In this document: in pieces, positions 5,401 through 30,788 of the stretch
Layout of the letters: each line of letters starts with the position of its first letter
How positions within the stretch are numbered: position 1 is the first letter of the stretch
From: Yuukianura sp. NJ FZ-2021
Taxonomy: Eukaryota
Assembly (NCBI GenBank): GCA_046563655.1
Contig: CM102285.1
Location: 10,478,001 to 10,542,000, forward strand
Length of the DNA stretch: 64,000 nucleotides
Direction: 5' to 3'
Notes under the pieces: generated by a model
Told to the model about the DNA's origin: nothing
The model's database searches: none
The model's input: only the letters and a program-made list of their open reading frames with translations
Program-made: the position numbers and the translations under genes

Positions 5401-8400
5401 ACTTGAAGTTCAAAGTCAACTCGCCTTTACTAGCCAAAGTTTTCAAGTTTGTCTGGACTGTGGCAGAAACTCCTGGAAAAAGAAACCTTTGTGTTCAGTT
5501 TTTGTCTGACTTTGTGACGGTAAAAGTTCGACTTACAAAATCATAGTAATGACAATTTCATTGTTAATCTTCTGTTTGAACTGTTTCAGAAATCCTTCTC
5601 CAGTGCGGCAGAGCAAATCAACTTTTGGTGTTTACTGACTCGAACTCTATTTCAAGACAACAAAACTTTGGAAGAATTTTACTTGCTAAGAGCACTGCAG
5701 TCCTTGTCTATTTGCCTTGAAGAGAATCCAAAATCACTACAAGAATATATGATCAATTCGGGCATTTCTAAAGCAAAGAGTGGCAGAATTTCAACGAGAA
5801 GTCACTCACAGGCTCAGACGGAAAGTCTTCCCGCGCAAGCCAGTGAACTTGAGTCGAAAGCCCAGGAACAGTTGTTTGAAATTCTTCTGGCCAGGACTCT
5901 CAACCATGATTCGCACCGTATTCGTACGTGGGGTTTGACTTGTCTGTCGATTGTTTCTAGTGCTTGTGAAGATGAGAGCGTAACCAGTACATTCATCAAG
6001 ATTGTTCTTGCTGGTCGAAACGAGATAATAGCCGACAAAGAGTGAGTATAACTGTTTTCCCTGCAAGTTTGATGTACGTTGTTCTGTTTTAGTTCATGGA
6101 CTTATCAATTTCAGACATGCCGTTGTAGTCGTCAGCAAGGCGCTTGAAAAGAGTTCACTATCCTCTTTGCGGGATCGGTTTGTAGAAATGATCGTGATGG
6201 AGTCTACCGAAAAGCCTGTGGCAATTGGACTGCTAAAACTGTGCCAAGCGAGCAGTGTTAAGGTGAATAAACTGTGGCTACCGCATGTATTTGCAGCTAG
6301 GATGTTATCTAGATTCTAGATACTAATAATATTGCATGATTTACATAGATTTTCTCGCGATTCCTACCAGCCGCAAAAAATCTCATCTGTAAAAATCCGG
6401 ATTCCAAGATGTTGCAAGCGGTACTGGATTGCTACGATCCTTCTGTTGATCGTTCACTGGAAATTATCCCGGATGCTCTTCGTCTTAAGCAGACGCATGC
6501 TAAGATTCTGTGCAAGTTGACAAGGGAGGCCGTATCTAGCGGCGATACGAAATGGCGGAAGACTTTGTTCAACATAATGGTCGGGGTTGTTCTGGAAAGC
6601 GAGGATCCGCTGGTAAGAACCACATAATTGTGTGTTCGATTTTTAAAATGCTGAGCTTAATTGTTAGTTAGGCTGCTGTTAACTATTCTGTTATTGATCT
6701 TGCAGATCAAGATAGCAATTCAGCGTTGCGTTCGAAAATGGATTATTGAGGCTTCGATTATTTCTGATGAGCTTGACAAATGTATTGCGATGGAAAAAGC
6801 GGAACGCAGCGCCTCGAGTTCTAGCTCTCGTAGGATGAAATCACAGCAGCGCTTAACTAATGGTAATGTTCGAGACTTGCTGGAACAAAGCAACTGGAGT
6901 AGCAGAACGGAAATTGTGTTGGAGTTGATTCAATCCAAAAAAAGATTGATACGGAAGACGAAACTCATTCGGCCACTTTTCAAATTGCTGAAGATGTGAG
7001 TTATCAATTTTTATTCTGTCTCGCAGTATGATTTTCTTGAATTTAACTTTGCAGTTGTATCGGTTTGGAGGAACAATCGCCGGTTGAATACTTGAAGCAA
7101 CTGATTTTGACTTCATTGACACTTTGCTGCTCAGATGACAAAACACAGGAATCAAATGAGGGTAACTTGATGTTTTTTCTAAATTGAATTAAACATGTTA
7201 TTGACATATGTTCTAAGTTTTTGTATTATTTGAATTAGATTGGATTGACTTCAATGTGGAAACTGTAATCGACTGTCTGCGATGTTCCAGAAACCCTCAA
7301 ACACATCATCATGCCTTAATTTTGCTAAATTATGCAGCGCAATTATACCCGGTGAGAGAAATCGTTGAATATTGATTTTTAGTGAAACTCTTGCGACGAT
7401 GTACATTATACAAAAACTGTTGCTGAATCTTTTAGGAGCAAGTATTGCATGGTGTAATGAGTCTGTTCACGTTTATGGGGAATTCAATTTTGAGACAAGA
7501 TGACAGCTACAGTACTCAGCTAATTCAGCAAACTGTTACTACAGTTATTCCAACCTTCGTCAGCACAAACGTCCTCCAAAAGTACTCCATTACGCGTGTG
7601 TCGGCCGGAATCTACTTCGCCTTTACCTCGGCACTTCAGGATATACCAGTGCATAGGAGAGTTCCTGTCTTCACTTCATTGGTCGAAACATTGGATCCTG
7701 CGGAGTCACTCTGGCAGTTATGTGTGATCATCATTGACAAAGCGTTGACACGAGACAAAAAGAGGTAGTGAAGAGTCGAACACTTTTAGCGCTTTGTTTT
7801 AGCACATTGAATTTTAATTCTCATCTTTCTCAATCATCTTCTTCGCATTTGCAGGAGCAATTTGACAAATGACATGGAGCTCGCGATTGAGATTGTTGGA
7901 AAGTTTCAACCAGAAGTAGCTGTGTCAACCTTGGAAAAAATCTACACATATTTCGCCCAGCTCCCAATTTATGACTGTAAGTACGATTGTCTTAACAATG
8001 ATTTTGCTTTCTAATGTTGTGATTGCTTTCAGGTTCCAGCGAAGAGTTTCATATGAAGAGACTAAGCCAGAATGCAAATTCCAAAGCAGTAGTAGATCTG
8101 GCAAGGAAGGAATCATTGAGAGATGTGGAGATTTTGGTTTACTTCACTTTGGAATTAGTTCTGAAGATTAGTGCATCGGTAAGTTTGACTTTCTTTTGTG
8201 ATATTGCGTCTAATGAATCACTAATTGATATTCTGCTCTGCTATGTAGTTTGCAGATTTAGAAGATAGCAAAAAATTGAGCTACGACGGTTTGCTGGAGA
8301 AATGCCTCTCTTACTCCAGACTTGTGAGCAATATCCATGAAGATAAATTATTTCGGCTCATCACACAGAGGAACCTCGATATCGTGGAGAAATTGAATGC

Positions 8401-10350
8401 AGCGTTGGAGCCAAGTGATTTAGTACGCACTGTTGTGTCTATTCTGGGACGGGAAGATTTAGGCGTCAAGCGGAAAGTACTCGAAATGCTCAATTACAGA
8501 ATCGCTCACAAGGTAAAAATCCTAAGGAAATATGCTTTTCTTACGCCAATAATGTTTATATGCAAAATTTTTGTATATTAGATTGAATGGTTCGGCAATC
8601 CAGAAATATTCCTGGATTTGATCGACCCGCTATTGGATTTTTGTGAAAAAACACCGACATCTGATGAAGCAATTGCTGTGATTCAAACTGCCTTCATTTC
8701 ACTGAAATTAATTTCAAAACACATTGCATCGGCACACCCGGATGAATTCGTTTCAGTTTTTAACCTCACTTTCAAACAAACAACTCACGAGAACAGGCTC
8801 CTTCGAGCATCAGCATTCGCTTGTCTTGGTGAACTATTTCCTCTCAAGTCTCTGATTCTCCCGAATTTGAATGCTGTTTGTGACGCAATCCTGAAGGCCT
8901 TCAAGGCGGCAGCCAAGATGAACGCTTTTGCTGAACAAAATGGAGGATTGGAAGTAATCCAGAACGGAACTCAAGAGGAGAATGCTGTAAAACACGAAAC
9001 AGAGATGTCCATCAGCGTCGCCAATTTACTATGTATTAGTACGTTGACATGCTTGACAAAACTTTGTGATCAGCTTGGATCATTCCTTGGGGCAAAGTTT
9101 CTTCAAAAGTCACTCGTTGCCATTTTGAAAATGGATGGAATCTTTGGACAAGGAGAGAAGGCGACGAATCGAAAGAAAATATTTGATCAACGAGTCAAAG
9201 CTGTTCTGAAATCCATCGCAGCCAAAATCCCTCTCAGGAATTCATTGCCATCAATTCGGAAGGTGTTCCAGGATGTCATTGCCTTTGACGACTTTCACCA
9301 CACAAATTCAATTGTGCTTCTAATTGACCTTTTGAAAGAAACGCTGGCCAATACACCAAAACCAGATTTTACGACGCTGTTTCCAATGGTCTGCGACTCA
9401 TTTCTCACGGATTTTCTATCCTACCGTCAACGAGTATGTAAATTGGAGCAGGGCGATGAAATGAAGATTTCCAAAGAAGATTTACTCCTGGTTGAAAACA
9501 CTATTTTGGAATGTCTTACAAATGGAATCGTTCTCAAAGTATCGGAAGGAGTCTTTCGCTCGTTTTACCATAAGATGTTTGATTGGACTGGTGAAAACTT
9601 GGACCGACTTATAACGTTCTACCGGTAAGTCTAAAAACATATCCTTACATCACATAATATGCAATTTGATATTTCTAGAATTAACGGTTTTAACTTACTG
9701 TTCCAGATTCAGCGCCAACGCTGCCGAAAAACTAAAGAGTTTGTTCGTAACGTTTTCTGGCTACGTGCTTAGCCATGGAGCAGAAAATTTGAATGTGGAT
9801 TTGGAGTTGACACGATCAATTTTGAAGTACTTTTACCATATCTTCTCAAACGATCGTGAAGGATTCATCACTGTTGACCGTTTCAACAGTTTGGTGAAAC
9901 CATTGGTGGATTTGGTAAGTACATTTCTCAATGGAATGTTTAGGTTCATACCTGTATGTGTCAATTCAATATGTGTTTTCTGCTCTGAATTCTTAGCTTG
10001 AATCCGAGCACACGATCAGTGGCGACATTGACATCAAAGACGTCAGGGACAATTTGATCCAACTGGCCGTCGCGACGAATGACTTGAACCGCTGGCAACA
10101 TCTTGTAGAATTGATTTCGACAAAGTGTCAGCATCCTAACAGAAACGTTCGACTCTACGTTATTTCAACTATTGCTGCTGCTGCAAGTGAGCTTGGGAAA
10201 GACTTCCTTCCTCTTCTTCCTCCAGCAGTTCCATTCTTGGCAGAGTTACTCAACGATGAAGATGAAGAGGTCGAGAAAGAAACAAAGAGAATGCTGCTCA
10301 AACTGGAAGAAATTGTTGGAGAACCATTACAACCCTATTTTGTTATGTAA
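2469..10350 (+). CDS. HEATR1: HEAT repeat-containing protein 1 / UTP10 (SSU processome), multi-exon, full-length copy
   Basis: N-terminus MATSLQRQLAGLAAP...; LSPYFMLPSAIKCIEWLVNRFHI; FTFMGNSILRQDDSYS; C-terminal FLPLLPPAVPFLAELLNDEDEEVE; many exons separated by short GT-AG introns. Confidence 0.95.
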
Positions 10351-10441
10351 AAAATAGACAACTTTTAATTGCTGAGGAATTAGCTAACCAGAGTTTAACT
10401 TTTAGAAAAACATAAAGTTAATAAGAGTAATACTATAACAA

Positions 10442-11405
10442 TCAAGGATTAAGTTGTGAATAAATCAGCTGCCTTTTATATGCATCGACTCCTACAAAGT
10501 CAACGAAAGATTTCATCTTCTTGCAAACACGTTCTGCTGGCCGAGTTCGAAACATGTTTCCAACAATTTGCATTGTTCCAGCTGGCTTCTCCAACTTAAC
10601 TTCCAGTATTGTGTCTTTCTTGGGAATTACTGCAACGGAAAAATACGTTTGTGGAGTTTTTCTGTTTTCAAAACTAACATTAAAAAAAATAAGAAAATAC
10701 TGGTACTCACGCCTGGACTTATTGTCAACTGTTACAATTTGAAACGTTTCCTTCGTTTCCTTCAACACGATGCCTTCCAAGACATGGTTGGCGTTGTGTT
10801 CTGAATTTTTGAGAACTTTGACATGAGCTCCGTGTAAATCCATTTTGTTCAATTTTGCTTGAATTTCATTCGGGTCAGTATCGGATCTAAAGTAAGGAAT
10901 TGTTTCTTTACAAAGTTAAAATCAGCCAATAACTAATTCTGCACACGAGTAGGTTTTCATGTAAGTTTCCAAACAAAGTACTTACCCGCACAATTCAGCG
11001 ACATAACTGTTCCACATAGAGTTGATTTCGACGAAATCTGCATAAGGGAGACGTGGTGGAACTTTCTCATTTTTGATTACTCCAATGGATTTGACAAACT
11101 TCACCTTGCTTTGGTGTTTTCTGAGTGGTGATGGAGTTTCTGCTGGCTTTGACTTCCGCTTCAATTTCGGTTTCTTCGGAGGGCTAGAAGTATCCAATGA
11201 CCGTTGCATCTTCTGATTTTTTCTTCCAAGTACAAACGTCTAAAACCAAAACGTATCCAACGTTTTTAGCATCAAGGACAGCACTGTTAAAATCTGTAAA
11301 CTTAAATAAATATTTGTATTTACCCTTCTTAGAGTCAGCTCAAGGTCCCTTTGAACTTGTGTCGAGTCAGGAAACGCTGCTTTGATGAACCGTTTCGTAA
11401 ATTCA
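10442..11405 (-). pseudogene. POP4: 5'-truncated POP4/RPP29 copy (start codon deleted)
   Basis: Near-identical to 23072-24030 but lacks the 167 bp equivalent to 24031-24197, which contains the ATG. Confidence 0.85.
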
Positions 11406-11486
11406 AAGTCGATACTGTGTACGAGCTGAGTGCTTGGTACTTAAGTTCTAATATTGTTCTGGATGTCTTTAGCTAATATGTAGTAG

Positions 11487-12067
11487 TCAATATAGTATCG
11501 TTTCCGAAATTTGTTATAGAAAAGTAGCCAAGGAAGAAGGCCGTAGCGTCTCATCAGAGACGGATCATACGGGCTGAATCCACATTTCTGCAACCTATCA
11601 AGGTACAACTTGGAAGGAAGAGCTGCCATGAACACTATTTCGGGACTAGCACTAGCACCAGCACCTGTATAACCTATTCGCTTGATCTCATCTGCAATAG
11701 ACTCCTTCAGTGTTTTAGCCTGTCACCAAAAGCAACTGGATTAGAATTTGCGATTTCGAATTATGGAAAACAATGACGAGTAGAACGTTACATGTTCATA
11801 ATGAGCAACTGCTTGGGAAGCCATTTCAAACACTAGATTCTGTATCTTCTCAGTCTCATCCACGCGAATAAAGTTCTCCTGTGACAGAGTATGTTTTAGA
11901 AGAAGATCTTGTGGTACTAAAATTCGGCGTGTCCTTCGAGAATGCGGAAGTGATCTAATGAAATTTGTGATTCCAATTGTCTTTCCAAAATGACTAGCCG
12001 CATGATCCAAGTGTTTTGATTTTAGCCCTTCAGAAATAAGAAATAGAACGTAAACGAGCCCGAATCG
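11487..12067 (-). pseudogene. NDUFAF6: NDUFAF6 3' fragment (last two exons) with a 12-bp in-frame insertion and a 2-bp insertion before the stop
   Basis: Matches 24279-24845; breakpoint lies in an intron; IGYTGAGASASPE vs IGYTGASPE; RKRYYIDYY... reads past the original TGA. Confidence 0.88.
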
Positions 12068-12076
12068 AACGTAAAT

Positions 12077-12181
12077 AAGCCAGCGAGAAGCGGAAGCTTC
12101 TGAAACAAGTACTTGATTTCTCAATTTCGGAGAAAGTTCGAAAGCAGGATACCGTCTTTGTTCTTATTTCGGTTGGAATGA
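12077..12181 (+). pseudogene. NPEPPS: 105-bp templated fragment of an NPEPPS exon
   Basis: AAGCCAGCGAGAAG...GTTGGAATGA equals 30306-30410 with 2 mismatches. Confidence 0.95.
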
Positions 12182-12778
12182 CGTTTCATAACGTTTCGAC
12201 CACAAATACTCTTTCTTCAGTATTAAGTCTAACCATAATTAACAGTAATTAACTTTAAAACAATCAAAACTAATCCCAATTAAAACTGAAATCCAAGTAA
12301 ATACCAAGAATGAATGACTTGTCAAGTCCAACCGACCGCCAAAATTTTCCCTCCATGACTTCCTCTCCCGCTCAAATTCCATCCGAAGCGTCTCCACTCT
12401 TATCCACACGAAATGAGAGTGGCGTCGTAGTTAATTTTGGAACACACGATAGTACTTTGAATTATTTTTTTCATTGGTTCTGTTTTTGGCAAACTCGAGT
12501 TTATTTGAGCAGTAAATTTAGACTATTCGAGAGGAAGCGCCATGGATCAAGTTAAACGATAAATAGTTAAAGCAAGTTAACTCTAATGCACAACCCAATA
12601 CATTAAATTACTTAAAATTAATTAATTAAATTCAAAAAGTTGAAACTACCACGCAGTAAAGACACACTCACAAAAATAAAAGATTTAAAAATTGCCACAT
12701 TTTTTAAAAACAGAATTTGGAAGGCGCATTTAATTTCGAAATCGAAAAAAACTAAAAACGGGTGAAGGAGGTTTTATA

Positions 12779-15700
12779 TTATCTCAAATCGGCGTCTCTC
12801 GCGTGCCGCGTTGCTACCACGCTATCGATTGGTCCTCTATTAATTGTAGAAGCGTTTCTTGATGTAAGTTGACTCGACCCTCGACCTTGACTTGACCCCT
12901 GACCTTGACTCGTCCCTTGACCCCTCCGTTGTGTTGACAAGAAAATTGGAGATGCGGTTCTAGCTTCATAATATTGAAGTTCTTGTTCAATGTCATCAGA
13001 TCCGTCAGCGCTTGTGTATATGACGGGTAGATGGCTACGATCTGTATAACCCAAGCGCTGGCTACTTTGCTGTACGTCCAAATCTGAATCCGAGTCTGAC
13101 TCGTCCGTGGTATCATCAAGGTGGCGATTAGCAACTGCTGCTGGTCGATTTCGCCTTTCATTTCTGTTGTTGCCATCATTGTTTCTGTTGTTGTCCACTG
13201 GGGGGACAAGGTCGTCCCCCTCATGATGCTCCACCCCTTCTTCCGCATACAGAATCTCATGACACAGAGGACAAGTATTCTGGATGTAAAGCCACTTCCG
13301 TAGACAAGCTGCATGGAACAGATGACCACACAGTGTCACTTTAGCAGAATCCATTTCCTCCTGAATTGAAATCACACAAAAATTAATGTAAAACTGTAAA
13401 CTAATTCATTAATTTTATAAATGAATTAATGAATTCGTACATAGCAAATTGCACAGACGTCATCCCGCCTTCTCTCCAATTGTTCAGCAGTAGCGTCACT
13501 CAGCGAGTCAATTTTCCTGGACGCTGATCGTCGCTGAACATAAACTCTCCAGCCTTTCTTCCCTTCCAGCCAAATGTTAAAGTAAGCGTGAATGGCCATA
13601 CCCAGAGCTGTGAAATATGAAAATAAACAAAAAAATTCAAAATTCAAAAATTTAAATCTCGCGCCAGTACATTTGGAATCCAGAAAAGTTTATTTTACCG
13701 CGAATAGCTGAAGCCGACTCAAACAGAAATATCCACACGGCATTCCCCAGGAGGAAGATTCCCGTGACAAATTCGGCACTTTGGGAGAACGCTTTGAGGT
13801 AGAAGATGATGTTGTCGTTGTCCAACTGGTCGCCAAAAGTTGTCACAAAATGGGCAAGAGCGTCTGGCACTAAGGCACGAAGCGACATACGGATTCGATG
13901 CACTACTATTGGAGTGTCCACCCGTTGAGCAAAGTACACAAAGAGTGAAACGAGAAGGGACACGATAATTTTTATCTTAAATTCCAACGCTAACGCTGCA
14001 AAAACAGAACAAAAACGGTTAAAATCTTCTTTTCCCGCAAGTTTTTAAATCATTGACAGTTTTTAGTACCTAGTACTGCCATGGACCATGTTGATATTTC
14101 GGATGAGTAAAGAAGAACAATGCAACACCAGAAAGAACCCACGAGGAACACCACTGATAGCACCGCTGCACGAATTTGTAGTGCCCGGAAGGATCGAAAG
14201 GCATGAAGAAGTGGAGCCACCTACAATATTTAAAGAAAAATGCAAATTGGTAAATCAGTTTACGTTTCACAAACGTTGATCGAGAGTTACCATTTGGTGC
14301 ACGGCGTGTAGCAACGCCGTTGACAACAACACCATGTTTTTCATCAGTCTGTCTAACCGTTTATCTGGCATTAGCGACGTGAGGGAAGTCTGGAGACACA
14401 AAATGAAAAAAAGTATGGTCGTGATTGATCCAAAGCGATTTACGTCGGCTTCAGAATTTGTCCCTCGGTATAATATCCACATGAGAAAGGCACCAATCTG
14501 TACACAAAACGTTAAAATGTCATTTTCAAATGGAAAATTTCAATGTAAAAGTTTGCAGCTAATGTTAGCAAGTTTAACTACTAAATTAGCTTGTTAGTGA
14601 ATGCTGACCTGGTGAGCGAGTCCTGAAACTGTCAGGGTAAGTCCAATGATGCCGAGAAGTGTTTCAGTTCCATTTGTAGTGACTAATCGAAGTGTATTTG
14701 AAAGAGAATGATTGGGAAGATTGACAAACAGGTCAAAAAGTGCTCGTGATAGCCAAAAAAGGCGAAAAACGACGTTGATCCGAAGCCTGCCTGTTTCACG
14801 CTGAATGAGATGACTGATTCCATAATCGTTTCGTACCCGCTTTGTGTCTTCCCAGGAAGCACAAAGAAAGTGATAAAGTTTCGGAACTCCTACCCAGAGT
14901 GATCCCTGAGAAACATACAAGTTTTAAAATTATTGTGAATCAAGTTTTGAATCAAAACTAACGATAAGTTGTATGTCAAAACCAGCTTACCTGAAGGAGA
15001 ATGACGATCGAGAAGAACATGAATTCCGGAATTGCAACAACTCCCGACACAAAGAATAGCGAAAACATCAACGCATCCATGACGTTTAAAATTGCAGCGG
15101 ATATGGCAGAATGTGGGCAGTAAGGGTATCCGCCTGGCCACATTCTGCTGACGAAGTATGTCGCTGCAAGGAACCCTCGAACGGCAATGTTCAGCAACAA
15201 ACGACGAGTCGTCGCCCAGCATAGTGTCGTCACCATCAGAGGTTTGACATACCAGCTTAAGTAAACTGACGAGAAAGCCAGCAGGTACGAATAGAGTTTC
15301 ACTAGATTCTTTGTAGACAGAACAAAGCACACGAGGGCAGCTGCGCATACTGCAAAAATCAAAACGCGAAGTATTTAGTTAATTGCAATGTCAAACTTAA
15401 TTGTTGTTGTAATTCGTAAATGTACTTACCTTGAAGCAGAAAAAGAACTTTGAGAACTTTAAAAATGTCGCCGAGTACAGTCTGGGCAGCATCGAATCCT
15501 TCTATCTCTAGACGCATGTAGTGAACAGGATCTTCTAACGGGGCACTACCAGAGGAATCATCAATTGATGCCGAATTGAGCAGAGACCCGAAGATACCGG
15601 ATATGGAAGTCACGCCTTGGATCAACGACGACACAAATGGTGGCACATATAGTGGAAGTGGTACTTCTTCAATGACAGTTTCTGTCGAATCTTCACTCCA

Positions 15701-15841
15701 AATTATCCCAGAGTCACTGTAACTCATACCCCATTTGTCGCCAAGTCCAAAGTTGTGTCGGAATATCTCATCGATGACGAGCAACGGAGGGACCCGCAGG
15801 AGAGATTCGCAGGCCTGGAAGATCTTGTTGCGGAGGACCAT
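12779..15841 (-). CDS. TRC8: TRC8/RNF139(RNF145)-family multi-pass membrane RING-H2 E3 ubiquitin ligase, copy 1
   Basis: N-terminal LRVPPLLVIDEIF, hydrophobic segments, HAYFNIWL and RING-H2 DDVCAICY/EEMDSAKVTLCGHLFHAACLRKWLYIQNTCPLCH; multi-exon, no disablement seen. Confidence 0.92.
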
Positions 15842-16104
15842 TGTAACGAATTTCGGGAAGACTTTTAGACTAAATGACGTTTGAACTTATGAGTTACGAC
15901 ATTGCAGTACAATTTCGGCCTTCCTTATGCACAACCAGAGTGTCAGTCTGTGAATGTCTTCCTCTTCAGAATAATGCTTCAGGGATTTGTTGTTGTTTCA
16001 CCTAACTTCCTCGTTAAACTGGCGTCAATGGATAATGGAATCCGGTCCCCTTGGAAACAGTTTTCCTTCCCAATCGGTATACCTTAAGAAAACGAAAACG
16101 ATAA

Positions 16105-16213
16105 CCTGGATAAACTGGATAACCTGGTGTAGATTTTGTCAATTTGTTTTTACCTACAACCTACCTACCTACCTACCTACCTACAACCTCTATTACATTT
16201 CTACCACATTGTC
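16105..16213. repeat. 109-bp palindrome spacer containing a (CCTA)n microsatellite and short CTGGATAA repeats
   Basis: CCTGGATAAACTGGATAACCTGG...TACCTACAACCTACCTACCTACCTACCTACCTACAACCTC between the arm ends. Confidence 0.9.
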
Positions 16214-16476
16214 TTATCGTTTTCGTTTTCTTAAGGTATACCGATTGGGAAGGAAAACTGTTTCCAAGGGGACCGGATTCCATTATCCATTGACGCCAGT
16301 TTAACGAGGAAGTTAGGTGAAACAACAACAAATCCCTGAAGCATTATTCTGAAGAGGAAGACATTCACAGACTGACACTCTGGTTGTGCATAAGGAAGGC
16401 CGAAATTGTACTGCAATGTCGTAACTCATAAGTTCAAACGTCATTTAGTCTAAAAGTCTTCCCGAAATTCGTTACA

Positions 16477-19400
16477 ATGGTCCTCCGCAACAAGATCTTC
16501 CAGGCCTGCGAATCTCTCCTGCGGGTCCCTCCGTTGCTCGTCATCGATGAGATATTCCGACACAACTTTGGACTTGGCGACAAATGGGGTATGAGTTACA
16601 GTGACTCTGGGATAATTTGGAGTGAAGATTCGACAGAAACTGTCATTGAAGAAGTACCACTTCCACTATATGTGCCACCATTTGTGTCGTCGTTGATCCA
16701 AGGCGTGACTTCCATATCCGGTATCTTCGGGTCTCTGCTCAATTCGGCATCAATTGATGATTCCTCTGGTAGTGCCCCGTTAGAAGATCCTGTTCACTAC
16801 ATGCGTCTAGAGATAGAAGGATTCGATGCTGCCCAGACTGTACTCGGCGACATTTTTAAAGTTCTCAAAGTTCTTTTTCTGCTTCAAGGTAAGTACATTT
16901 ACGAATTACAACAACAATTAAGTTTGACATTGCAATTAACTAAATACTTCGCGTTTTGATTTTTGCAGTATGCGCAGCTGCCCTCGTGTGCTTTGTTCTG
17001 TCTACAAAGAATCTAGTGAAACTCTATTCGTACCTGCTGGCTTTCTCGTCAGTTTACTTAAGCTGGTATGTCAAACCTCTGATGGTGACGACACTATGCT
17101 GGGCGACGACTCGTCGTTTGTTGCTGAACATTGCCGTTCGAGGGTTCCTTGCAGCGACATACTTCGTCAGCAGAATGTGGCCAGGCGGATACCCTTACTG
17201 CCCACATTCTGCCATATCCGCTGCAATTTTAAACGTCATGGATGCGTTGATGTTTTCGCTATTCTTTGTGTCGGGAGTTGTTGCAATTCCGGAATTCATG
17301 TTCTTCTCGATCGTCATTCTCCTTCAGGTAAGCTGGTTTTGACATACAACTTATCGTTAGTTTTGATTCAAAACTTGATTCACAATAATTTTAAAACTTG
17401 TATGTTTCTCAGGGATCACTCTGGGTAGGAGTTCCGAAACTTTATCACTTTCTTTGTGCTTCCTGGGAAGACACAAAGCGGGTACGAAACGATTATGGAA
17501 TCAGTCATCTCATTCAGCGTGAAACAGGCAGGCTTCGGATCAACGTCGTTTTTCGCCTTTTTTGGCTATCACGAGCACTTTTTGACCTGTTTGTCAATCT
17601 TCCCAATCATTCTCTTTCAAATACACTTCGATTAGTCACTACAAATGGAACTGAAACACTTCTCGGCATCATTGGACTTACCCTGACAGTTTCAGGACTC
17701 GCTCACCAGGTCAGCATTCACTAACAAGCTAATTTAGTAGTTAAACTTGCTAACATTAGCTGCAAACTTTTACATTGAAATTTTCCATTTGAAAATGACA
17801 TTTTAACGTTTTGTGTACAGATTGGTGCCTTTCTCATGTGGATATTATACCGAGGGACAAATTCTGAAGCCGACGTAAATCGCTTTGGATCAATCACGAC
17901 CATACTTTTTTTCATTTTGTGTCTCCAGACTTCCCTCACGTCGCTAATGCCAGATAAACGGTTAGACAGACTGATGAAAAACATGGTGTTGTTGTCAACG
18001 GCGTTGCTACACGCCGTGCACCAAATGGTAACTCTCGATCAACGTTTGTGAAACGTAAACTGATTTACCAATTTGCATTTTTCTTTAAATATTGTAGGTG
18101 GCTCCACTTCTTCATGCCTTTCGATCCTTCCGGGCACTACAAATTCGTGCAGCGGTGCTATCAGTGGTGTTCCTCGTGGGTTCTTTCTGGTGTTGCATTG
18201 TTCTTCTTTACTCATCCGAAATATCAACATGGTCCATGGCAGTACTAGGTACTAAAAACTGTCAATGATTTAAAAACTGGCGGGAAAAGAAGATTTTAAC
18301 CGTTTTTGTTCTGTTTTTGCAGCGTTAGCGTTGGAATTTAAGATAAAAATTATCGTGTCCCTTCTCGTTTCACTCTTTGTGTACTTTGCTCAACGGGTGG
18401 ACACTCCAATAGTAGTGCATCGAATCCGTATGTCGCTTCGTGCCTTAGTGCCAGACGCTCTTGCCCATTTTGTGACAACTTTTGGCGACCAGTTGGACAA
18501 CGACAACATCATCTTCTACCTCAAAGCGTTCTCCCAAAGTGCCGAATTTGTCACGGGAATCTTCCTCCTGGGGAATGCCGTGTGGATATTTCTGTTTGAG
18601 TCGGCTTCAGCTATTCGCGGTAAAATAAACTTTTCTGGATTCCAAATGTACTGGCGCGAGATTTAAATTTTTGAATTTTGAATTTTTTTGTTTATTTTCA
18701 TATTTCACAGCTCTGGGTATGGCCATTCACGCTTACTTTAACATTTGGCTGGAAGGGAAGAAAGGCTGGAGAGTTTATGTTCAGCGACGATCAGCGTCCA
18801 GGAAAATTGACTCGCTGAGTGACGCTACTGCTGAACAATTGGAGAGAAGGCGGGATGACGTCTGTGCAATTTGCTATGTACGAATTCATTAATTCATTTA
18901 TAAAATTAATGAATTAGTTTACAGTTTTACATTAATTTTTGTGTGATTTCAATTCAGGAGGAAATGGATTCTGCTAAAGTGACACTGTGTGGTCATCTGT
19001 TCCATGCAGCTTGTCTACGGAAGTGGCTTTACATCCAGAATACTTGTCCTCTGTGTCATGAGATTCTGTATGCGGAAGAAGGGGTGGAGCATCATGAGGG
19101 GGACGACCTTGTCCCCCCAGTGGACAACAACAGAAACAATGATGGCAACAACAGAAATGAAAGGCGAAATCGACCAGCAGCAGTTGCTAATCGCCACCTT
19201 GATGATACCACGGACGAGTCAGACTCGGATTCAGATTTGGACGTACAGCAAAGTAGCCAGCGCTTGGGTTATACAGATCGTAGCCATCTACCCGTCATAT
19301 ACACAAGCGCTGACGGATCTGATGACATTGAACAAGAACTTCAATATTATGAAGCTAGAACCGCATCTCCAATTTTCTTGTCAACACAACGGAGGGGTCA

Positions 19401-19539
19401 AGGGACGAGTCAAGGTCAGGGGTCAAGTCAAGGTCGAGGGTCGAGTCAACTTACATCAAGAAACGCTTCTACAATTAATAGAGGACCAATCGATAGCGTG
19501 GTAGCAACGCGGCACGCGAGAGACGCCGATTTGAGATAA
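16477..19539 (+). CDS. TRC8: TRC8/RNF139-family RING-H2 E3 ligase, copy 2 (same protein as copy 1)
   Basis: Mirror of 12779-15841; all ORF translations are identical; first introns at 16889-16968 and from 17328. Confidence 0.92.
19396..19449 (+). repeat. 3 x 18-bp coding tandem repeat (GQGTSQ GQGSSQ GRGSSQ) in the TRC8 tail; mirrored in the left arm
   Basis: GGTCAAGGGACGAGTCAA GGTCAGGGGTCAAGTCAA GGTCGAGGGTCGAGTCAA. Confidence 0.85.
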
Positions 19540-20136
19540 TATAAAACCTCCTTCACCCGTTTTTAGTTTTTTTTCGATTTCGAAATTAAATGCGCCTTCC
19601 AAATTCTGTTTTTAAAAAATGTGGCAATTTTTAAATCTTTTATTTTTGTGAGTGTGTCTTTACTGCGTGGTAGTTTCAACTTTTTGAATTTAATTAATTA
19701 ATTTTAAGTAATTTAATGTATTGGGTTGTGCATTAGAGTTAACTTGCTTTAACTATTTATCGTTTAACTTGATCCATGGCGCTTCCTCTCGAATAGTCTA
19801 AATTTACTGCTCAAATAAACTCGAGTTTGCCAAAAACAGAACCAATGAAAAAAATAATTCAAAGTACTATCGTGTGTTCCAAAATTAACTACGACGCCAC
19901 TCTCATTTCGTGTGGATAAGAGTGGAGACGCTTCGGATGGAATTTGAGCGGGAGAGGAAGTCATGGAGGGAAAATTTTGGCGGTCGGTTGGACTTGACAA
20001 GTCATTCATTCTTGGTATTTACTTGGATTTCAGTTTTAATTGGGATTAGTTTTGATTGTTTTAAAGTTAATTACTGTTAATTATGGTTAGACTTAATACT
20101 GAAGAAAGAGTATTTGTGGTCGAAACGTTATAAACG

Positions 20137-20241
20137 TCATTCCAACCGAAATAAGAACAAAGACGGTATCCTGCTTTCGAACTTTCTCCGAAATTGAGAA
20201 ATCAAGTACTTGTTTCAGAAGCTTCCGCTTCTCGCTGGCTT
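20137..20241 (-). pseudogene. NPEPPS: Inverted copy of the 105-bp NPEPPS exon fragment
   Basis: Reverse complement of 12077-12181. Confidence 0.93.
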
Positions 20242-20250
20242 ATTTACGTT

Positions 20251-20831
20251 CGATTCGGGCTCGTTTACGTTCTATTTCTTATTTCTGAAGGGCTAAAATC
20301 AAAACACTTGGATCATGCGGCTAGTCATTTTGGAAAGACAATTGGAATCACAAATTTCATTAGATCACTTCCGCATTCTCGAAGGACACGCCGAATTTTA
20401 GTACCACAAGATCTTCTTCTAAAACATACTCTGTCACAGGAGAACTTTATTCGCGTGGATGAGACTGAGAAGATACAGAATCTAGTGTTTGAAATGGCTT
20501 CCCAAGCAGTTGCTCATTATGAACATGTAACGTTCTACTCGTCATTGTTTTCCATAATTCGAAATCGCAAATTCTAATCCAGTTGCTTTTGGTGACAGGC
20601 TAAAACACTGAAGGAGTCTATTGCAGATGAGATCAAGCGAATAGGTTATACAGGTGCTGGTGCTAGTGCTAGTCCCGAAATAGTGTTCATGGCAGCTCTT
20701 CCTTCCAAGTTGTACCTTGATAGGTTGCAGAAATGTGGATTCAGCCCGTATGATCCGTCTCTGATGAGACGCTACGGCCTTCTTCCTTGGCTACTTTTCT
20801 ATAACAAATTTCGGAAACGATACTATATTGA
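20251..20831 (+). pseudogene. NDUFAF6: Inverted NDUFAF6 3' fragment
   Basis: Mirror of 11487-12067, sharing the 12-bp and 2-bp insertions. Confidence 0.88.
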
Positions 20832-20912
20832 CTACTACATATTAGCTAAAGACATCCAGAACAATATTAGAACTTAAGTACCAAGCACTCAGCTCGTACA
20901 CAGTATCGACTT

Positions 20913-21687
20913 TGAATTTACGAAACGGTTCATCAAAGCAGCGTTTCCTGACTCGACACAAGTTCAAAGGGACCTTGAGCTGATTCTAAGAAGGGTAAAT
21001 ACAAATATTTATTTAAGTTTACAGATTTTAACAGTGCTGTCCTTGATGCTAAAAACGTTGGATACGTTTTGGTTTTAGACGTTTGTACTTGGAAGAAAAA
21101 ATCAGAAGATGCAACGGTCATTGGCTACTTCTAGCCCTCCGAAGAAACCGAAATTGAAGCGGAAGTCAAAGCCAGTAGAAACTCCATCACCACTCAGAAA
21201 ACACCAAAGCAAGGTCAAGTTTGTCAAATCCATTGGAGTAATCAAAAATGAGAAAGTTCCACCACGTCTTCCTTATGCAGATTTTGTCGAAATCAACGCT
21301 ATGTGGAACAGTTATGTCGCTGAATTGTGCGGGTAAGTACTTGGTTCTGAAACTAGCATAAAGACTTGCTCTATTAAATAGTGCAGAATGCTTTTGGCTG
21401 ATTTTAACTTTGTAAAGAATCAATTCCTTACTTTAGATCCGATACTGACCCGAGTGAAATTCAAGCAAAATTGAACAAAATGGATTTACACGGAGCTCAT
21501 GTCAAAGTTCTCAAACATTCAGAACACAACACCAAACACGTCGTGGAAGGCATCGTGTTGAAGGAGACGAAGGAAACGTTTCAAATTGTAACAGTTGACA
21601 ATAAGTCCAGGCGTGAGTGCCAGTATTTTCTTATTTTAATCTAGTTTTGAAAACCGAAAAAAACTTCACAAACGTATTTTTCTGTTG
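20913..21687 (+). pseudogene. POP4: Inverted internal POP4 fragment (no start codon, no last exon)
   Basis: Shares the 167-bp deletion; ends just before the last intron acceptor; more diverged (LKHSEHNTKHVVEG vs LKNSEHNANHVLEG). Confidence 0.87.
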
Positions 21688-21700
21688 TATATATGTTTAC

Positions 21701-22980
21701 CAGCTTGGATCATTCCTTGGAGCAAAGTTTCTTCAGAAGTCACTCGTTGCCATTTTGAAAATGGATGGGATCTTTGGACAAGGAGAGAAGGCGACGAATC
21801 GAAAGAAAATATTTGATCAGCGAGTCAAAGCTGTTCTAAAATCCATTGCAGCTAAAATCCCTCTAAGGAATTCGCTGCCATCAATTCGGAAGGTCTTCCA
21901 GGATGTCATTGCCTTTGATGATTTTCACCACACAAATTCAATTGTGCTTCTAATTGATCTTTTAAAAGAAACGCTGGCCAATACACCAAAACCAGATTTT
22001 ACGACGCTGTTTCCAATGGTCTGCGACTCATTTCTCACGGATTTTCTATCCTACCGTCAACGAGTATGTAAAATGGAGCAGGGCGATGAGATGAAGATTT
22101 CGAAAGAAGATTTATTCTTGGTTGAAAACACTATTTTGGAATGTCTTACAAATGGAATCGTTCTCAAAGTATCGGAAGGAGTTTTTCGATATTTTTATCA
22201 CAAGATGTTTGATTGGACTGGTGAAAACTTAGACCGGCTTATAACATTCTACCGGTAAGTCTAAAAACATATCCTTACATCACATAGTATGCACTTTGAT
22301 ATTTCTAGAATTAACGGTTTTAACTTACCGTTCCAGATTCAGCGCCAACGCTGCCGAAAAACTAAAGAGTTTGTTCGTAACGTTTTCTGGTTACGTGCTT
22401 AGCCATGGAGCAGAAAATTTGAATGTGGATTTGGAGTTGACACGATCAATTTTGAAGTACTTTTACCATATCTTCTCAAACGATCGTGAAGGATTCATCA
22501 CTGTTGACCGTTTCAACAGTTTGGTGAAACCATTGGTGGATTTGGTAAGTACATTTCTCAATGGAATGTTTAGGTTCATACCTGTATGTGTCAATTCAAT
22601 ATGTGTTTTCTGCTCTGAATTCTTAGCTTGAATCCGAGCACACGATCAATGGCGACATTGACATCAAAGACGTCAGGGACAATTTGATCCAACTGGCCGT
22701 CGCGACGAATGACTTGAACCGCTGGCAACATCTTGTAGAATTGATTTCGACAAAGTGTCAGCATCCTAACAGAAACGTTCGACTCTACGTTATTTCAACT
22801 ATTGCTGCTGCTGCAAGTGAGCTTGGGAAAGACTTCCTTCCTCTTCTTCCTCCAGCAGTTCCATTCTTGGCAGAGTTACTCAACGATGAAGATGAAGAGG
22901 TCGAGAAAGAAACAAAGAGAATGCTGCTCAAACTGGAAGAAATTGTTGGAGAACCATTACAACCCTATTTTGTTATGTAA
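21701..22980 (+). pseudogene. HEATR1: 5'-truncated HEATR1 copy (last exons only)
   Basis: Begins mid-exon at QLGSFLGAKF (=9071) after a 13-bp filler and runs to the same stop; frame intact but no start or 5' exons. Confidence 0.85.
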
Positions 22981-23071
22981 AAAATAGACAACTTTTAATT
23001 GCTGAGGAATTAGCTAACCAGAGTTTAACTTTTAGAAAAACATAAAGTTAATAAGAGTAATACTATAACAA

Positions 23072-24143
23072 TCAAGGATTAAGTTGTGAATAAATCAGCT
23101 GCCTTTTATATGCATCGACTCCTACAAAGTCAACGAAAGATTTCATCTTCTTGCAAACACGTTCTGCTGGCCGAGTTCGAAACATGTTTCCAACAATTTG
23201 CATTGTTCCAGCTGGCTTCTCCAACTTAACTTCCAGTATTGTGTCTTTCTTGGGAATTACTGCAACGGAAAAATACGTTTGTGGAGTTTTTCTGTTTTCA
23301 AAACTAACATTAAAAAAAATAAGAAAATACTGGTACTCACGCCTGGACTTATTGTCAACTGTTACAATTTGAAACGTTTCCTTCGTTTCCTTCAACACGA
23401 TGCCTTCCAAGACATGGTTGGCGTTGTGTTCTGAATTTTTGAGAACTTTGACATGTACTCCGTGTAAATCCATTTTGTTCAATTTTGCTTGAATTTCATT
23501 CGGGTCAGTATCGGATCTAAAGTAAGGAATTGTTTCTTTACAAAGTTAAAATCAGCCAATAACGAATTCTGCACACGGTTTTCATGTAAGTTTCCAAACA
23601 AAGTACTTACCCGCACAATTCAGCGACATAACTGTTCCACATAGAGTTGATTTCGACGAAATCTGCATAAGGGAGACGTGGTGGAACTTTCTCATTTTTG
23701 ATTACTCCAATGGATTTGAGAAACTTGACCTTGCTTTGGTGTTTTCTGAGTGGTGATGGAGTTTCTGCTGGCTTTGACTTCCGCTTCAATTTCGGTTTCT
23801 TCGAAGGGCTAGAAGTAGCCAATGACCGTTGCATCTTCTGATTTTTTCTTCCAAGTACAAACGTCTAAAACCAAAACGTATCCAACGTTTTTAGCATCAA
23901 GGACAGCACTGTTAAAATCTGTAAACTTAAATAAATATTTGTATTTACCCTTCTTAGAGTCAGCTCAAGGTCCCGTTGAACCTGTGTCGAGTCAGGAAAC
24001 GCTGCTTTGATGAAGCGTTTCGTAAATTCATAGTCTTCGTCTTGCAAACGGCTCGAATCGACAGATCCATCTGCGTTAATCTTGGAATACTTCGCTTCAT
24101 TCAGTTTCTTTGATGAAACTTCGAGTGTGTCTTCATTGTCCAT
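23072..24143 (-). CDS. POP4: Ribonuclease P/MRP protein subunit p29 (POP4/RPP29), intact multi-exon copy
   Basis: MDNEDTLEV... start; INSMWNSYV; KMDLHG.HVKVLK...EGIVLKETKETFQIVT..N....IPKKDTIL...GNMFRTRPAER, characteristic of Rpp29. Confidence 0.9.
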
Positions 24144-24278
24144 GATGACTTTAAAATTTAAAAAACAAATAAGCATTCAATTCAAATTAGTTTATTCAAG
24201 TCGATACTGTGTACGAGCTGAGTGCTAGGTACTTAAGTTCTAATATTGTTCTGGATGTCTTTAGCTAATATGTAGTAG

Positions 24279-25791
24279 TCAATAGTATCGTTTCCGAAAT
24301 TTGTTATAGAAAAGTAGCCAAGGAAGAAGGCCGTAGCGTCTCATCAGAGACGGATCATACGGGCTGAATCCACATTTCTGCAACCTATCAAGGTACAACT
24401 TGGAAGGAAGAGCTGCCATGAACACTATTTCGGGACTAGCACCGGTGTAACCTATTCGCTTGATCTCATCTGCAATAGATTCCTTCAATGTTTTAGCCTG
24501 TCACCAAAAGCAACTGGATTAGAATTTGCGATTTCGAATTATGGAAAACAATGACGAGTAGAACGTTACATGTTCATAATGAGCAACTGCTTGGGAAGCC
24601 ATTTCAAACACTAGATTCTGTATCTTCTCAGTCTCATCCACGCGAATAAAGTTCTCCTGTGACAAAGTGTGTTTTAGAAGAAGATCTTGTGGTACTAAAA
24701 TTCGGCGTGTCCTTCGAGAATGCGGAAGTGATCTAATGAAATTTGTGATTCCAATTGTCTTTCCAAAATGACTAGCCGCATGATCCAAGTGTTTTGATTT
24801 TAGCCCTTCAGAAACAAGAAATAGAACGTAAACGAGCCCGAATCGTTTGAAAGGATACAATATTTCTCACGAACCTAAGTAATCAAAGATGATGTAGAAA
24901 ATAGGCGAAACGGATTTCTCAGAATATGCTTCAAGATCAGCCAAAGAGTTAAAAGGAGAGTCTGTCATGGTATCCTGTCGAGATTCCACTAGATTCGTAA
25001 ACCATCGCTTCGAAAGTGCGCCTTCACCAATGACTTCCTGCCCAGACAAACACTATTGGTTAAATTCAAGAGGAAGTTTCAAATTCATTCCAATCTATAA
25101 ATCAAAGTGGAATAGTGGAAATTGTCCTTGAAGAAGAACCAAAGTACCCACCGATAACTCTTGAATAACAGGGTGTCTTGGGACGGGTTTGTTGGGATAC
25201 TTTCCAAATAGATGATCTACTGCATCTCGCCAGAAAGCGAGTCGCCCAAGACCAGTCTCTCTGAAAGTTACATTCTCTCGAACCGTTGCTACTTCGACAT
25301 TGAAAGCCCTAATAGCGAAAAATGCTCGTCGTGTCTTGGCAGGCAGTAAAAGCGTTGTAAGGTATCCCTCATAGTCATGTTTCCTAACAACAAAAAAGCA
25401 AACATGGTCTCAATTTTCAACCCAACCTGACTACTGTAAACATGCCCTTAAAGGTATCAGATATTTCATATTTCCTTCTGTCTAGTGTAGGTAACAACAC
25501 TTGTTCATCTCGATGAATTGTAACTGGAACTAGAAGTTCCAGTTCCAGTTAACAAGTGACAGATAAACCAGTTCTAAGTAGTAGTAGTAGTTTTCAAGTT
25601 TAGAAAGTTTACTTGACAATTCCAATGCAGTATTGAAAAGCCGAGTGGCTTCCCTGTTTAGGTGAACTGACCCTGACCCCGTCCTTGGCCAATTGTGTAG
25701 TCGTTCCCGAACAAAAGGCTCGACTTGCTTCAAAATGTATCCGTAGATGATTTTGAGTCCTCTTGATCGTACAAGTAACGGTCTTTAACAT
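24279..25791 (-). CDS. NDUFAF6: NADH dehydrogenase complex I assembly factor 6 (squalene/phytoene synthase fold), intact copy
   Basis: Basic presequence MLKTVTCTIKR..., spliced AFQYCIGIVK/KHDYEGYLTTLLLPAKTRRAFFAIRAFNVEVA...RLAFWRDAVD, DHAASHFGK, YLDRLQKCGFSPYDPSL. Confidence 0.93.
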
Positions 25792-29900: not shown

Positions 29901-30788
29901 TTGAGGAACGCTTGACTTGGGAACCGAAAAAAGATGAGGGCCATCTTCAAGCAATGTTGAGGTCATTGGTCCTAAATCGCATGATCTCATTTGATAACGA
30001 GGCAACCAGAATCGAAGCTCAGAAGCGATTTGAACTTCATACTGCTGAAAAAGAAAAGGATCGAGTGCCAATCATCCCGGATCTCCGAAGTGCAGTCTAC
30101 AAGGCTGTTCTGTCTACTGCAGATCAGGCCATGCTAGATAAAATCCTGGACGTATGTTGAGCATTTATTAGAGTTTAATTAATACATAGTTAAATGCTAT
30201 ATATTTCTGTTTAGATGTACTGTAACACCGACTTACAAGAGGAGCAGGACCGCATTTCGCGAGCTTTAGGAGCCATTGGAAGCATCTCCCCAGCAAACCC
30301 GGAGGAAGCCAGCGAGAAGCGGAAGCTTCTGAAACAAGTACTTGATTTCTCCATTTCGGAGAAAGTTCGAAAGCAGGATACGGTCTTTGTTCTTATTTCG
30401 GTTGGAATGAGCAAGGAAGGCAGAGAGTTGGCGTGGGAATTCTTCAAAGACAATTGGCAATATTTCAAAGACAACTACCCCGTAAGTATATGCGATTCTT
30501 CAAACATTTCTAAAAATTTTCTTCTCAACTGACGGGGAATGATTATTATTCCAGTGTCAACACATTGCCCGAGTTGTGAAGTACGTCATTGACAGTTTCG
30601 TCACTGAAGAGAAAGCTGTGGACGCTGAGACATTCTTCCGCGACCATCCATTCCCTGGAACTGAACGCACCGTTCAGCAATCCGTGGAGCAAATTCGGTT
30701 GAACGCTGCTTGGATCGAGAGAGACTTTGCCGAAGTTGGAGAGTTTCTGAAACAATCGTATGCTCATATTCAACGCACAGAGTTATAA
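26926..30788 (+). CDS. NPEPPS: Puromycin-sensitive aminopeptidase (M1 family); alternative start at 27217
   Basis: [71 protein letters not shown] (HEXXH-X18-E), [36 protein letters not shown]. Confidence 0.96.

Follow-up and report, generated by a model that had tools for sequence, protein, structure and literature searches.

A palindrome carrying two TRC8-family genes

We analyzed a 64,000-nt stretch of the genome assembly of Yuukianura sp. NJ FZ-2021 (GCA_046563655.1, contig CM102285.1, positions 10,478,001 to 10,542,000 of the forward strand), referred to below as the window and numbered from its first letter. The assembled window contains a palindrome with a predicted gene of the TRC8/RNF139 family in each arm, lying between HEATR1 on the left and POP4, NDUFAF6 and NPEPPS on the right. 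A preliminary description, made from the sequence, had reported two arms of ~5.47 kb around a 109-nt spacer. Repeat finding and blastn comparison of the window with itself bore this out, yielding one inverted pair, 10633-16104 against 21687-16214, that aligns over 5482 columns at 99.07% identity with 33 mismatches and 9 gap openings. In both arms the identity ends at the same base, the window contains no N's, and an inverted match of 5.5 kb cannot have originated by chance. The 109-nt spacer at the center of the palindrome (16105-16213) is itself not palindromic. It holds a (TACC/CCTA)n microsatellite and a 9-nt repeat present three times, which begins within the last five letters of the left arm. 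In appearance it is ordinary unique DNA, neither adapter-like nor a self-complementary filler; the motif GATAA, repeated three times at the border of the left arm and the spacer, proves nothing about a fold-back origin.

The right copy of the TRC8-family gene occupies 16477-19539 on the forward strand and was modeled with eight predicted exons encoding ~870 amino acids. The model is a length-maximizing splice model and is therefore approximate; in it the frame stays open from the ATG at 16477 to the stop at 19539 across GT-AG introns of 47-111 nt. Six exon open reading frames (ORFs) match the Pfam profile TRC8_N (PF13705) collinearly over profile positions 3-494, three of the six individually exceeding the 27-bit cut-off (43.8, 60.5 and 33.2 bits), and the last exon matches zf-RING_2 (37.9 bits) and zf-rbx1 (37.5 bits). 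The predicted product thus has a TRC8_N multi-pass membrane domain followed by a C-terminal RING-H2, as in TRC8/RNF139 and RNF145, ligases of the endoplasmic reticulum (ER) membrane. The left copy is the mirror image of the right one and runs on the reverse strand from the ATG at 15841 to the TAA at 12779. Its ORFs equal those of the right arm letter for letter, so that each arm carries a predicted, intact protein-coding gene with an open eight-exon frame. The two copies stand head-to-head with ~635 nt between their ATGs, and the earlier claim of two intact, identically translating genes in this orientation holds.

Base-by-base alignment separated each arm into two zones. The inner arm (11335-16104, 4770 nt) contains one substitution (14039/18279) and two one-base indels (12187 and 12744), which reproduces exactly the three differences listed in the preliminary description. 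All three lie outside the predicted coding sequence of TRC8, and the reading frames are for this reason identical in both arms; the substitution falls in a predicted intron and would affect a silent Leu codon if that segment were exonic. The outer arm (10633-11334, 702 nt), in contrast, carries 35 substitutions and four indel events, which had been overlooked. The outer 13% of the arm holds 35 of the 36 substitutions, the rate being 5.0% there versus 0.02% in the inner arm. Counted per 200 nt from the outside toward the center, the substitutions number 13, 16, 5, 1 and 0, and the whole TRC8 gene body lies within the homogenized inner zone.

A larger direct-inverted-direct structure

The same blastn self-comparison detected two direct repeats, 9071-11410 with 21701-24035 (97.9%) and 11401-12067 with 24194-24845 (96.7%). 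These direct repeats overlap the arms, and part of each arm is therefore a segment present in three copies. The palindrome exists, but the wider structure had been missed: it is the left junction of a direct-inverted-direct triplication in which the 3' end of HEATR1 is duplicated as well. To describe the structure we named the segments T (5' part of HEATR1), U (3' exons of HEATR1), V (POP4 with the 3' part of NDUFAF6), y (a piece of NPEPPS), W (TRC8) and X (5' exons of NDUFAF6, then NPEPPS). The order in the window is T-U1-V1-y-TRC8(-)-spacer-TRC8(+)-y'-Vr'-U2-V3-X. Segment V occurs three times, in direct, inverted and direct orientation, and U and W occur twice each, so that the middle of three copies is inverted and the flanks are duplicated, as in an inverted triplication.

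The three copies of V differ in what they retain. V1 (10633-12067, reverse strand), in the outer left arm, contains a POP4 without its start and a 3' fragment of NDUFAF6, with Pfam matches to RNase_P-MRP_p29 and SQS_PSY. Vr' (20251-21687, forward strand), the inverted copy identified by the arm and three-way alignments, contains the NDUFAF6 3' fragment and the middle exons of POP4. V3 (23263-24845, reverse strand) is the ancestral-type copy according to ORFs, Pfam matches and alignments; it contains the intact POP4 as well as the 3' exons of NDUFAF6, a gene that is intact here and runs on from V3 into 25095-25409. The start of POP4 (MDNEDTLEV...) lies in a 158-nt segment, 24036-24193, that is present only in V3. 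Both V1 and Vr' are without it, hence there is only one intact POP4.

The 3' part of the intact HEATR1, made up of T and U1, lies at 7436-10350 on the forward strand with the gene start further left in the window; its Pfam matches are HEAT_HEATR1 (7436-7765), BP28CT (8582-9628) and HEAT (9997-10350). U1, the first copy of the direct repeat with the 3' exons of HEATR1, spans 9071-10632 (forward strand; blastn against 21701-24035), and U2 (21701-23262, forward strand; blastn and ORFs) is a truncated HEATR1 3' end that starts mid-exon. Among the copies of these genes, only T with U1 (HEATR1) and V3 with segment X (POP4 and NDUFAF6) are intact.

The join between V3 and segment X is the natural structure of the NDUFAF6 gene. 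The joins among V, y and W are therefore derived and TRC8 arrived secondarily. This agrees with the preliminary description, which had observed that TRC8 is missing from the POP4-NDUFAF6-NPEPPS run at 23-31 kb and had suggested that it was imported: ORF, Pfam and tblastn/blastn evidence confirms its absence from that run, and the join between V and TRC8 falls within an NDUFAF6 intron, with a 9-nt filler and a 105-nt NPEPPS piece. A tblastn search of the 64-kb window with the predicted protein for a third TRC8 copy or remnant gave a best match outside the arms with E = 0.25. A sensitive blastn search of the window with the TRC8 3' flank and the center recovered only the 105-nt NPEPPS piece.

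Joints, fillers and other contents of the arms

The joints carry short insertions. At the junction of V and y lies a 9-nt filler (12068-12076) that repeats the end of V; Tandem Repeats Finder reported a 21-nt unit in 1.9 copies at 12042-12081, making the filler a slipped copy of the adjacent V end. It is followed by the 105-nt piece of an NPEPPS exon, y (12077-12181, forward strand), which matches its source at 30306-30410 on the same strand (blastn, 98.1%) and keeps the orientation of the source. The source lies inside the NPEPPS gene (~26.7-30.6 kb), within the ERAP1_C exon assigned by Pfam at 30215-30529, and the two sequences differ at 2 of 105 letters (1.9%). The piece thus stands between V and TRC8 in the chromosomal order and orientation of V3...NPEPPS, as a templated piece taken from ~5.5 kb away. 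Sequence comparison identified its inverted counterpart in the right arm (20137-20241, reverse strand). A 13-nt filler (21688-21700) separates Vr' from U2. Fillers, a short templated piece and a fold-back with a loop of ~100 nt are the marks of replication template switching. The two differences in 105 letters of y, the slipped 9-nt filler and the 5.0% divergence of the outer part of Vr' argue that the junctions are natural and old.

The arms do not constitute a clean cassette for TRC8, as had been proposed, because each also contains a 5'-truncated POP4, fragments of NPEPPS and of the 3' part of NDUFAF6, and a copy of a dispersed repeat. The right copy of this repeat lies downstream of TRC8 at 19865-20130 and was recognized by contig depth; the left copy (12189-12454) is its mirror. 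In sequencing run X1 the summed contig depth over the right copy is 3077 versus ~630 beside it. The depth is ~5 times that of the surroundings in X1 and ~10 times in run X2, and many loose contig ends accumulate at 19865-20137. Neither terminal inverted repeats nor a Pfam match were found for the repeat, and Rfam gave no matches over 8-32 kb.

Divergence layers and gene conversion

A three-way alignment of the V copies revealed that V1 is a mosaic. It equals V3 in 10633-~11050 and is identical to Vr', in the right arm, from 11335 on. All 46 columns in which V1 agrees with V3 and not with Vr' lie at or before 11334, and from 11350 on every variable column has V1 agreeing with Vr' and not with V3. 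In this latter part V3 is distinguished by the 158-nt POP4-start segment, two smaller indels (2 nt and 12 nt), and substitutions at 12 sites. The direct copies of U show a comparable partition: U1 and U2 differ at 33 positions in 9091-9761 and at one, 10019, beyond it, and are identical over 10020-10632, an identity that continues from the U tract into V1 and V3 as far as 10825.

Three layers of divergence can accordingly be distinguished. An old layer of ~5% is found in the outer zone of the arms; a middle layer comprises V1 versus V3 at ~1.6-2% (10826-12067) and y versus its source at 1.9%; and two tracts are near zero, 11335-16104 between the palindrome arms and 9762-10825 between the direct copies. 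In the outer POP4 exons of Vr' the substitutions fall on codon positions one to three as 4, 1, 3 and 1, 2, 3, with 9 amino acid changes in 156 codons. This pseudogene-like pattern suggests that the outer 0.7 kb of Vr' decayed as a dead copy.

The inner arms are more alike than the age of the structure would allow, with one substitution in 4770 nt versus 35 in 702 nt. The preliminary description had held that the arms are kept alike by exchange between them, and their homogenization after origin is confirmed by the contrast of 0.02% with 5.0% and by the graded fall of 13, 16, 5, 1 and 0 substitutions. Gene conversion as the cause of this homogenization is well supported by the pattern of the substitutions. 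Because the divergence falls gradually toward the center, repeated conversion tracts with different ends are favored over a single copying event. We also considered GC-biased conversion and saw no sign of it: of the 12 substitutions by which both arms differ from V3, 10 are strong/weak, and at these the arms carry the A/T letter seven times and the G/C letter three times.

The HEATR1 copies and the haplotypes

U1 and U2 differ in a manner that is unexpected for a gene and its truncated copy. Between 9091-9761 and 21721-22391 there are 29 substitutions in 558 coding letters, 24 of them at third codon positions (the probability of at least 24 being 5e-5 at p = 0.46), and only 3 of 186 residues are changed. 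In run X2, a contig that runs from T into U differs from the U2 of the window at 2 letters over 21701-22012, an interval in which U1 and U2 differ at 15. The U2 type is thus the working HEATR1 allele in the organism sampled by X2. The tract 9091-9761 of the working HEATR1 in the window is then probably from a divergent allele, brought in through recombination or conversion. With a divergent allele in U1, the divergence between U1 and U2 is no clock for the rearrangement; its age is instead indicated by the diverged outer zone of Vr' and by the junction common to organisms A and B.

A second haplotype is also apparent. In run X3, from the same sample as X1, a haplotype differs by 1-1.2% from the window at 16489-17939, 19500 and 22425-23250, and the variants at 17556, 17559 and 19500 are common to X3 and the independent X2. 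The sample of X1 and X3 is either heterozygous or pooled. Over TRC8 the other haplotype is ~1.2% off the window (11 of 898 letters in X3 and 6 of 553 in X2). The arms of the palindrome differ by 0.06%, and for this reason they are not two joined alleles.

Contig evidence for the assembled structure

To assess whether the assembly is correct, we used the contigs of sequencing runs; six runs contain the stretch, all in the form of contigs, and 15900-23250 was aligned against those of four of them (X1-X4). Since the aligned stretch is the right half of the structure, the left junctions are visible only as loose contig ends. X2 comes from a different study and bears a different organism label (organism B). 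An X1 contig with a depth of 199.2 carries the letters of the window at 21619, 21633, 21641, 21657 and 21736, the depth being obtained as 771.3 minus 572.1 for the Vr' letters and as 445.5 minus 246.3 for 21736. With window letters at 21619-21657 and at 21736, this contig bridges the Vr'|U2 junction with more than 31 letters on each side. In X2, a contig with a depth of 146.1 carries the Vr' letters, continues through the filler, and ends in 29 letters that equal 8996-9024 of the window. Loose ends equal to 9041-9070 (T/U1) and 24846-24875 (V3/X) are found in both X1 and X2. A junction common to X1 and the independent X2 indicates a natural rearrangement that predates the split of the organism labels. 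In X2 the junction of Vr' with HEATR1 lies ~75 nt further upstream in HEATR1 than in the window; judging from one 29-letter loose end, the form in the window would fit a later deletion of 79 nt between two CAGC motifs.

The contig depths in X1 are 246-250 for U1-only contigs and 199-227 for U2-only contigs, 572 for the U tract that is identical in both copies, 570 for the arm-type inner part of V, and 607-634 for TRC8. TRC8 is therefore present at two-copy depth, the sum of U1 and U2, and each copy is tied via V to a different flank. The preliminary description had proposed depth over TRC8 as a check on its copy number, and the outcome supports two copies relative to U, in a stretch that provides no single-copy reference.

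At the center the evidence is less direct. A record of X2 (record 9, 814 letters) aligns on 16192-16915, with 90 further letters unaligned toward the left at the microsatellite. The X2 bin 15900-16145 is covered at 15.3 with no X2 contig fitting two places, and X2 variants at 16224, 16248 and 16252 are listed for the right side only. This suggests that X2 has two distinguishable inner arms around the spacer. For the Vr'-specific letters at 20984-21454, no contig of X1-X4 has the letters of the window; the sole contig over this interval has, site by site, the letter found in most of the three V copies, a pattern that we attribute to a minority branch lost in contig building and that is evidence neither way. 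X1 also contains two odd joints, one from 17399 back to 16116 (depth 54.7, 8 extra letters) and one from 18685 to 19567 (depth 54.6, skipping 881 nt and anchored on one side by only 21 letters), which may be library chimeras or rare rearranged copies. The warning given earlier, that the palindrome could be a fold-back artifact, is thus answered by contigs at the outer junction Vr'|U2, bridged in X1 and X2, but not across the spacer, which no listed contig is shown to bridge as a whole. We regard the outer rearrangement as close to certain to be real and the palindrome itself as very probably so.

Origin of the rearrangement

Our preferred interpretation, to which we assign a probability of roughly 0.65, is that the inverted duplication at the locus is real and inherited, that it is what survives, as a palindromic junction, of a larger rearrangement with direct-inverted-direct layout, and that arm-to-arm conversion took place later. 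The rearrangement would most likely have been made by serial template switching during replication, of the type of microhomology-mediated break-induced replication/fork stalling and template switching (MMBIR/FoSTeS) or of origin-dependent inverted-repeat amplification (ODIRA). It would have created four new joints: V|y, y|TRC8 flank, the fold-back over the 109-nt loop, and Vr'|HEATR1 in mid-exon. The event would have placed the TRC8/RNF139-family gene beside HEATR1-POP4-NDUFAF6 in two head-to-head copies, separating HEATR1, intact on the left, from POP4/NDUFAF6, intact on the right, by 12.6 kb. Repeated conversion between the arms would then have held the inner 4.77 kb, with the whole TRC8 gene, essentially identical, while in the right arm the outer 0.7 kb underwent decay as a pseudogene, and the second conversion tract, 9762-10825, would link the two direct copies. 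The third V copy runs into segment X and not into TRC8; a plain triplication is therefore insufficient, and extra switches or deletions (V...y and y...W) are needed. The run Vr'-U2-V3, with arms Vr' and V3 and a 1.56-kb 'spacer' formed by U2, would represent a resolved junction, and the TRC8 palindrome an unresolved one.

A more specific form of this history, which we consider possible but somewhat unlikely, is that the locus is a fixed, naturally inherited germline fossil of an ODIRA-type inverted triplication in a wild animal, its intact junction kept letter-perfect by conversion because the TRC8 genes of the lineage now lie there, and its other junction resolved by arm loss. The 79-nt deletion, the conversion tracts and the capture of a divergent HEATR1 allele would, on the same tentative account, be later changes between two populations. 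If true, it would be a germline case, on an evolutionary timescale, of a mechanism for which the documented examples have so far come from yeast selection experiments, patients and tumours, and would mean that a gene of an essential pathway can be moved and doubled in this way at no cost.

Several observations weigh against the preferred interpretation. No donor TRC8 locus was found within the 64-kb window. X1, X3, X4 and X5 are one sample (S1), possibly the source of the assembly itself. The depths are contig depths, not true read depths, with no long reads among the data, and the depth ratios in X1 show only that TRC8 equals U1 plus U2, the stretch being without a single-copy baseline. The depth of X2 is very uneven, 7-22 over TRC8 versus 150-280 over U. 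The reading of the center relies on bin depth and the unaligned 90-letter head of a contig, and no listed contig aligned across the whole spacer with at least 31 letters in both arms. Finally, U1 and U2 differ as two functional alleles would, and not as a gene would from a dead fragment; allelic sequence therefore entered the locus, and its history goes beyond one event.

A rival explanation is that the center is an artifact, either a fold-back chimera produced by amplification or in a long-read library, or an assembler mis-join at the (CCTA)n microsatellite, with the TRC8 segments non-adjacent or TRC8 present singly in the real genome. Artificial palindromic long reads are a known product of amplification (PMC6218980), the inner arms are near letter-perfect with one of their three differences being an A7/A8 homopolymer length, no contig shown bridges the whole spacer, and the two low-depth X1 joints (17399/16116 and 18685/19567) could be seen in this light. 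The outer arms, however, are 5% diverged and end in different flanks confirmed independently in X1 and X2, whereas support for the center is indirect. The depth of the arm-type inner V and of TRC8 implies two TRC8 copies, one per flank, whose 5' ends point toward each other. Both arms cease to match at one and the same base, and in X2 a contig extends out of the right arm into spacer sequence and the left inner arm is covered. We therefore judge an artificial center improbable. About equally improbable is a history in which the palindrome is real and the inner identity stems from a single recent event of re-duplication, ~4.8 kb long, by fold-back for a second time or by replacement. A single copying event would likewise yield near-zero inner divergence, and the values of ~1.6-2% for V1/V3 and 1.9% for y and its source could suggest a middle-aged layer apart from the 5% layer. 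The stepwise fall of substitutions toward the center fits many tracts better than one sharp edge, and the separate identity tract 9762-10825 shows that conversion has been active at the locus.

The allelic appearance of U1 and U2, with 24 of 29 differences at third codon positions, would also be expected if two haplotypes had been falsely stitched together, U1/U2 and V1/V3 being alleles and TRC8 being single-copy per haplotype. The depths of U1-type and U2-type contigs in X1 are about equal (246-250 versus 199-227), and the T-linked X2 contig is only 2 letters from U2 over an interval with 15 U1/U2 sites. Such stitching is nevertheless very improbable: at 21736 in X1 the U2-type letter is on the contig bridging Vr' and the U1-type letter on the T contig, which makes the flanks non-collinear; a haplotype with U2 only would be without most of HEATR1; the same Vr'|U2 junction is present in the independent sample X2; and the arms differ by 0.06% as opposed to ~1.2% for the second haplotype in X2 and X3. 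Gene capture by a Helitron-like or other mobile element was considered in view of the four gene fragments strung together, and was rejected in view of the continuity of V1 with U1 and the intact HEATR1.

Comparison with known systems

In the palindromes of sex chromosomes (human Y P1-P8, the primate and mouse X, and willow), the identity of the arms is ascribed to arm-to-arm conversion (10.1101/800185; PMC8600007; PMC8327919; PMC7023750). The locus described here resembles them in having arms of at least 99% identity (99.07%) around a short unique spacer (109 nt) and intact protein-coding genes. It is unlike them in the length of its arms, 5.47 kb against the >10 kb that defines the large class, and in its gene, a housekeeping-type ER ligase and not a testis gene family. 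Moreover, its outer arm escaped homogenization and the palindrome is one junction of a triplication. The locus works like gene-bearing palindromes and lies outside the class of large sex-chromosome palindromes.

The nearest parallel on a small scale is the hsp16-1/hsp16-48 locus of C. elegans, a 3.8-kb inverted repeat with two 1.9-kb gene modules 416 bp apart, the complete identity of which has been explained by gene conversion and not by recent origin (PMC3966223). Other adjacent inverted paralogs also undergo conversion. The locus of C. elegans and the present one are both small invertebrate inverted duplications of autosomal type whose arms carry whole genes. The present structure is three times larger, with one multi-exon gene per arm and pseudogene fragments, and unlike the C. 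elegans locus it includes an outer zone that has diverged and a third copy in direct orientation.

Inverted triplications have been described as structures with an inverted triplicated segment between duplicated ones (DUP-TRP/INV-DUP) and ODIRA products, including yeast SUL1 amplicons and human MECP2 and PLP1 rearrangements (PMC10766186; PMC11293582; PMC4352052). In yeast the junctions have loops of 40-80 nt and coincide with short interrupted inverted repeats, and where a palindrome subsequently loses one of its arms, the junction concerned acquires a wider spacer (PMC10766186). The structure in the window shares with these an inverted middle copy between direct copies, duplicated flanks, a short loop (109 nt), and junctions with fillers or templated insertions (the 9-nt filler, the 105-nt NPEPPS piece and the 13-nt filler). 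The known cases are mutations newly arisen, either in patients or during laboratory evolution, whereas the present one is fixed, diverged to 5% and found under two organism labels, and its third copy continues into segment X and not into TRC8.

Host lineage and further genes of the window

The window has a G+C content of 38% and introns of ~47-110 nt. A HEATR1 exon gave a single protein match in the database, at 26% identity, and an NPEPPS exon gave 2676, with identities up to ~61% and none close. The host is an animal of a poorly sampled lineage that appears to have no close relative in the protein collection. The TRC8-family sequence likewise appears to be very divergent: exon 4 found no relative in a word-based protein search. 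A search of metagenome contigs with a TRC8 exon gave 435 pattern matches, none of which was confirmed. An exact 24-nt word of the spacer had no match in the metagenome contigs. Elsewhere in the window, a SMYD-type methyltransferase gene with a MYND zinc finger ahead of its SET domain (Pfam) is located at 55085-56919 on the forward strand, and the long ORFs at 31-54 kb are without Pfam matches.

Implications for the TRC8-family genes and the locus

In human and fly, TRC8/RNF139 functions in ER-associated degradation and in sterol-linked control. By analogy, the TRC8-family products encoded here may have E3 ligase activity and reside in the ER. Both copies are probably transcribed outward from the shared center of ~635 nt, and the gene dose would be doubled, as the preliminary description had suggested. 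Conversion would let either copy overwrite a mutation in the other, and could equally spread one. There is no sign of selection for two TRC8 copies, and the observations are equally compatible with a neutral by-product of the rearrangement. The locus raises no new question about TRC8 or ER-associated degradation, and nothing shows that the doubling is adaptive. If real, it is a compact example, legible in full, of one replication accident that moved and doubled a gene and scattered pseudogene fragments of four neighbours, after which the rearrangement was partly frozen by gene conversion. The unconverted outer arm beside the converted inner arm would then provide an internal clock, making the locus useful for teaching and for testing models of how templates are switched and how long conversion tracts are.

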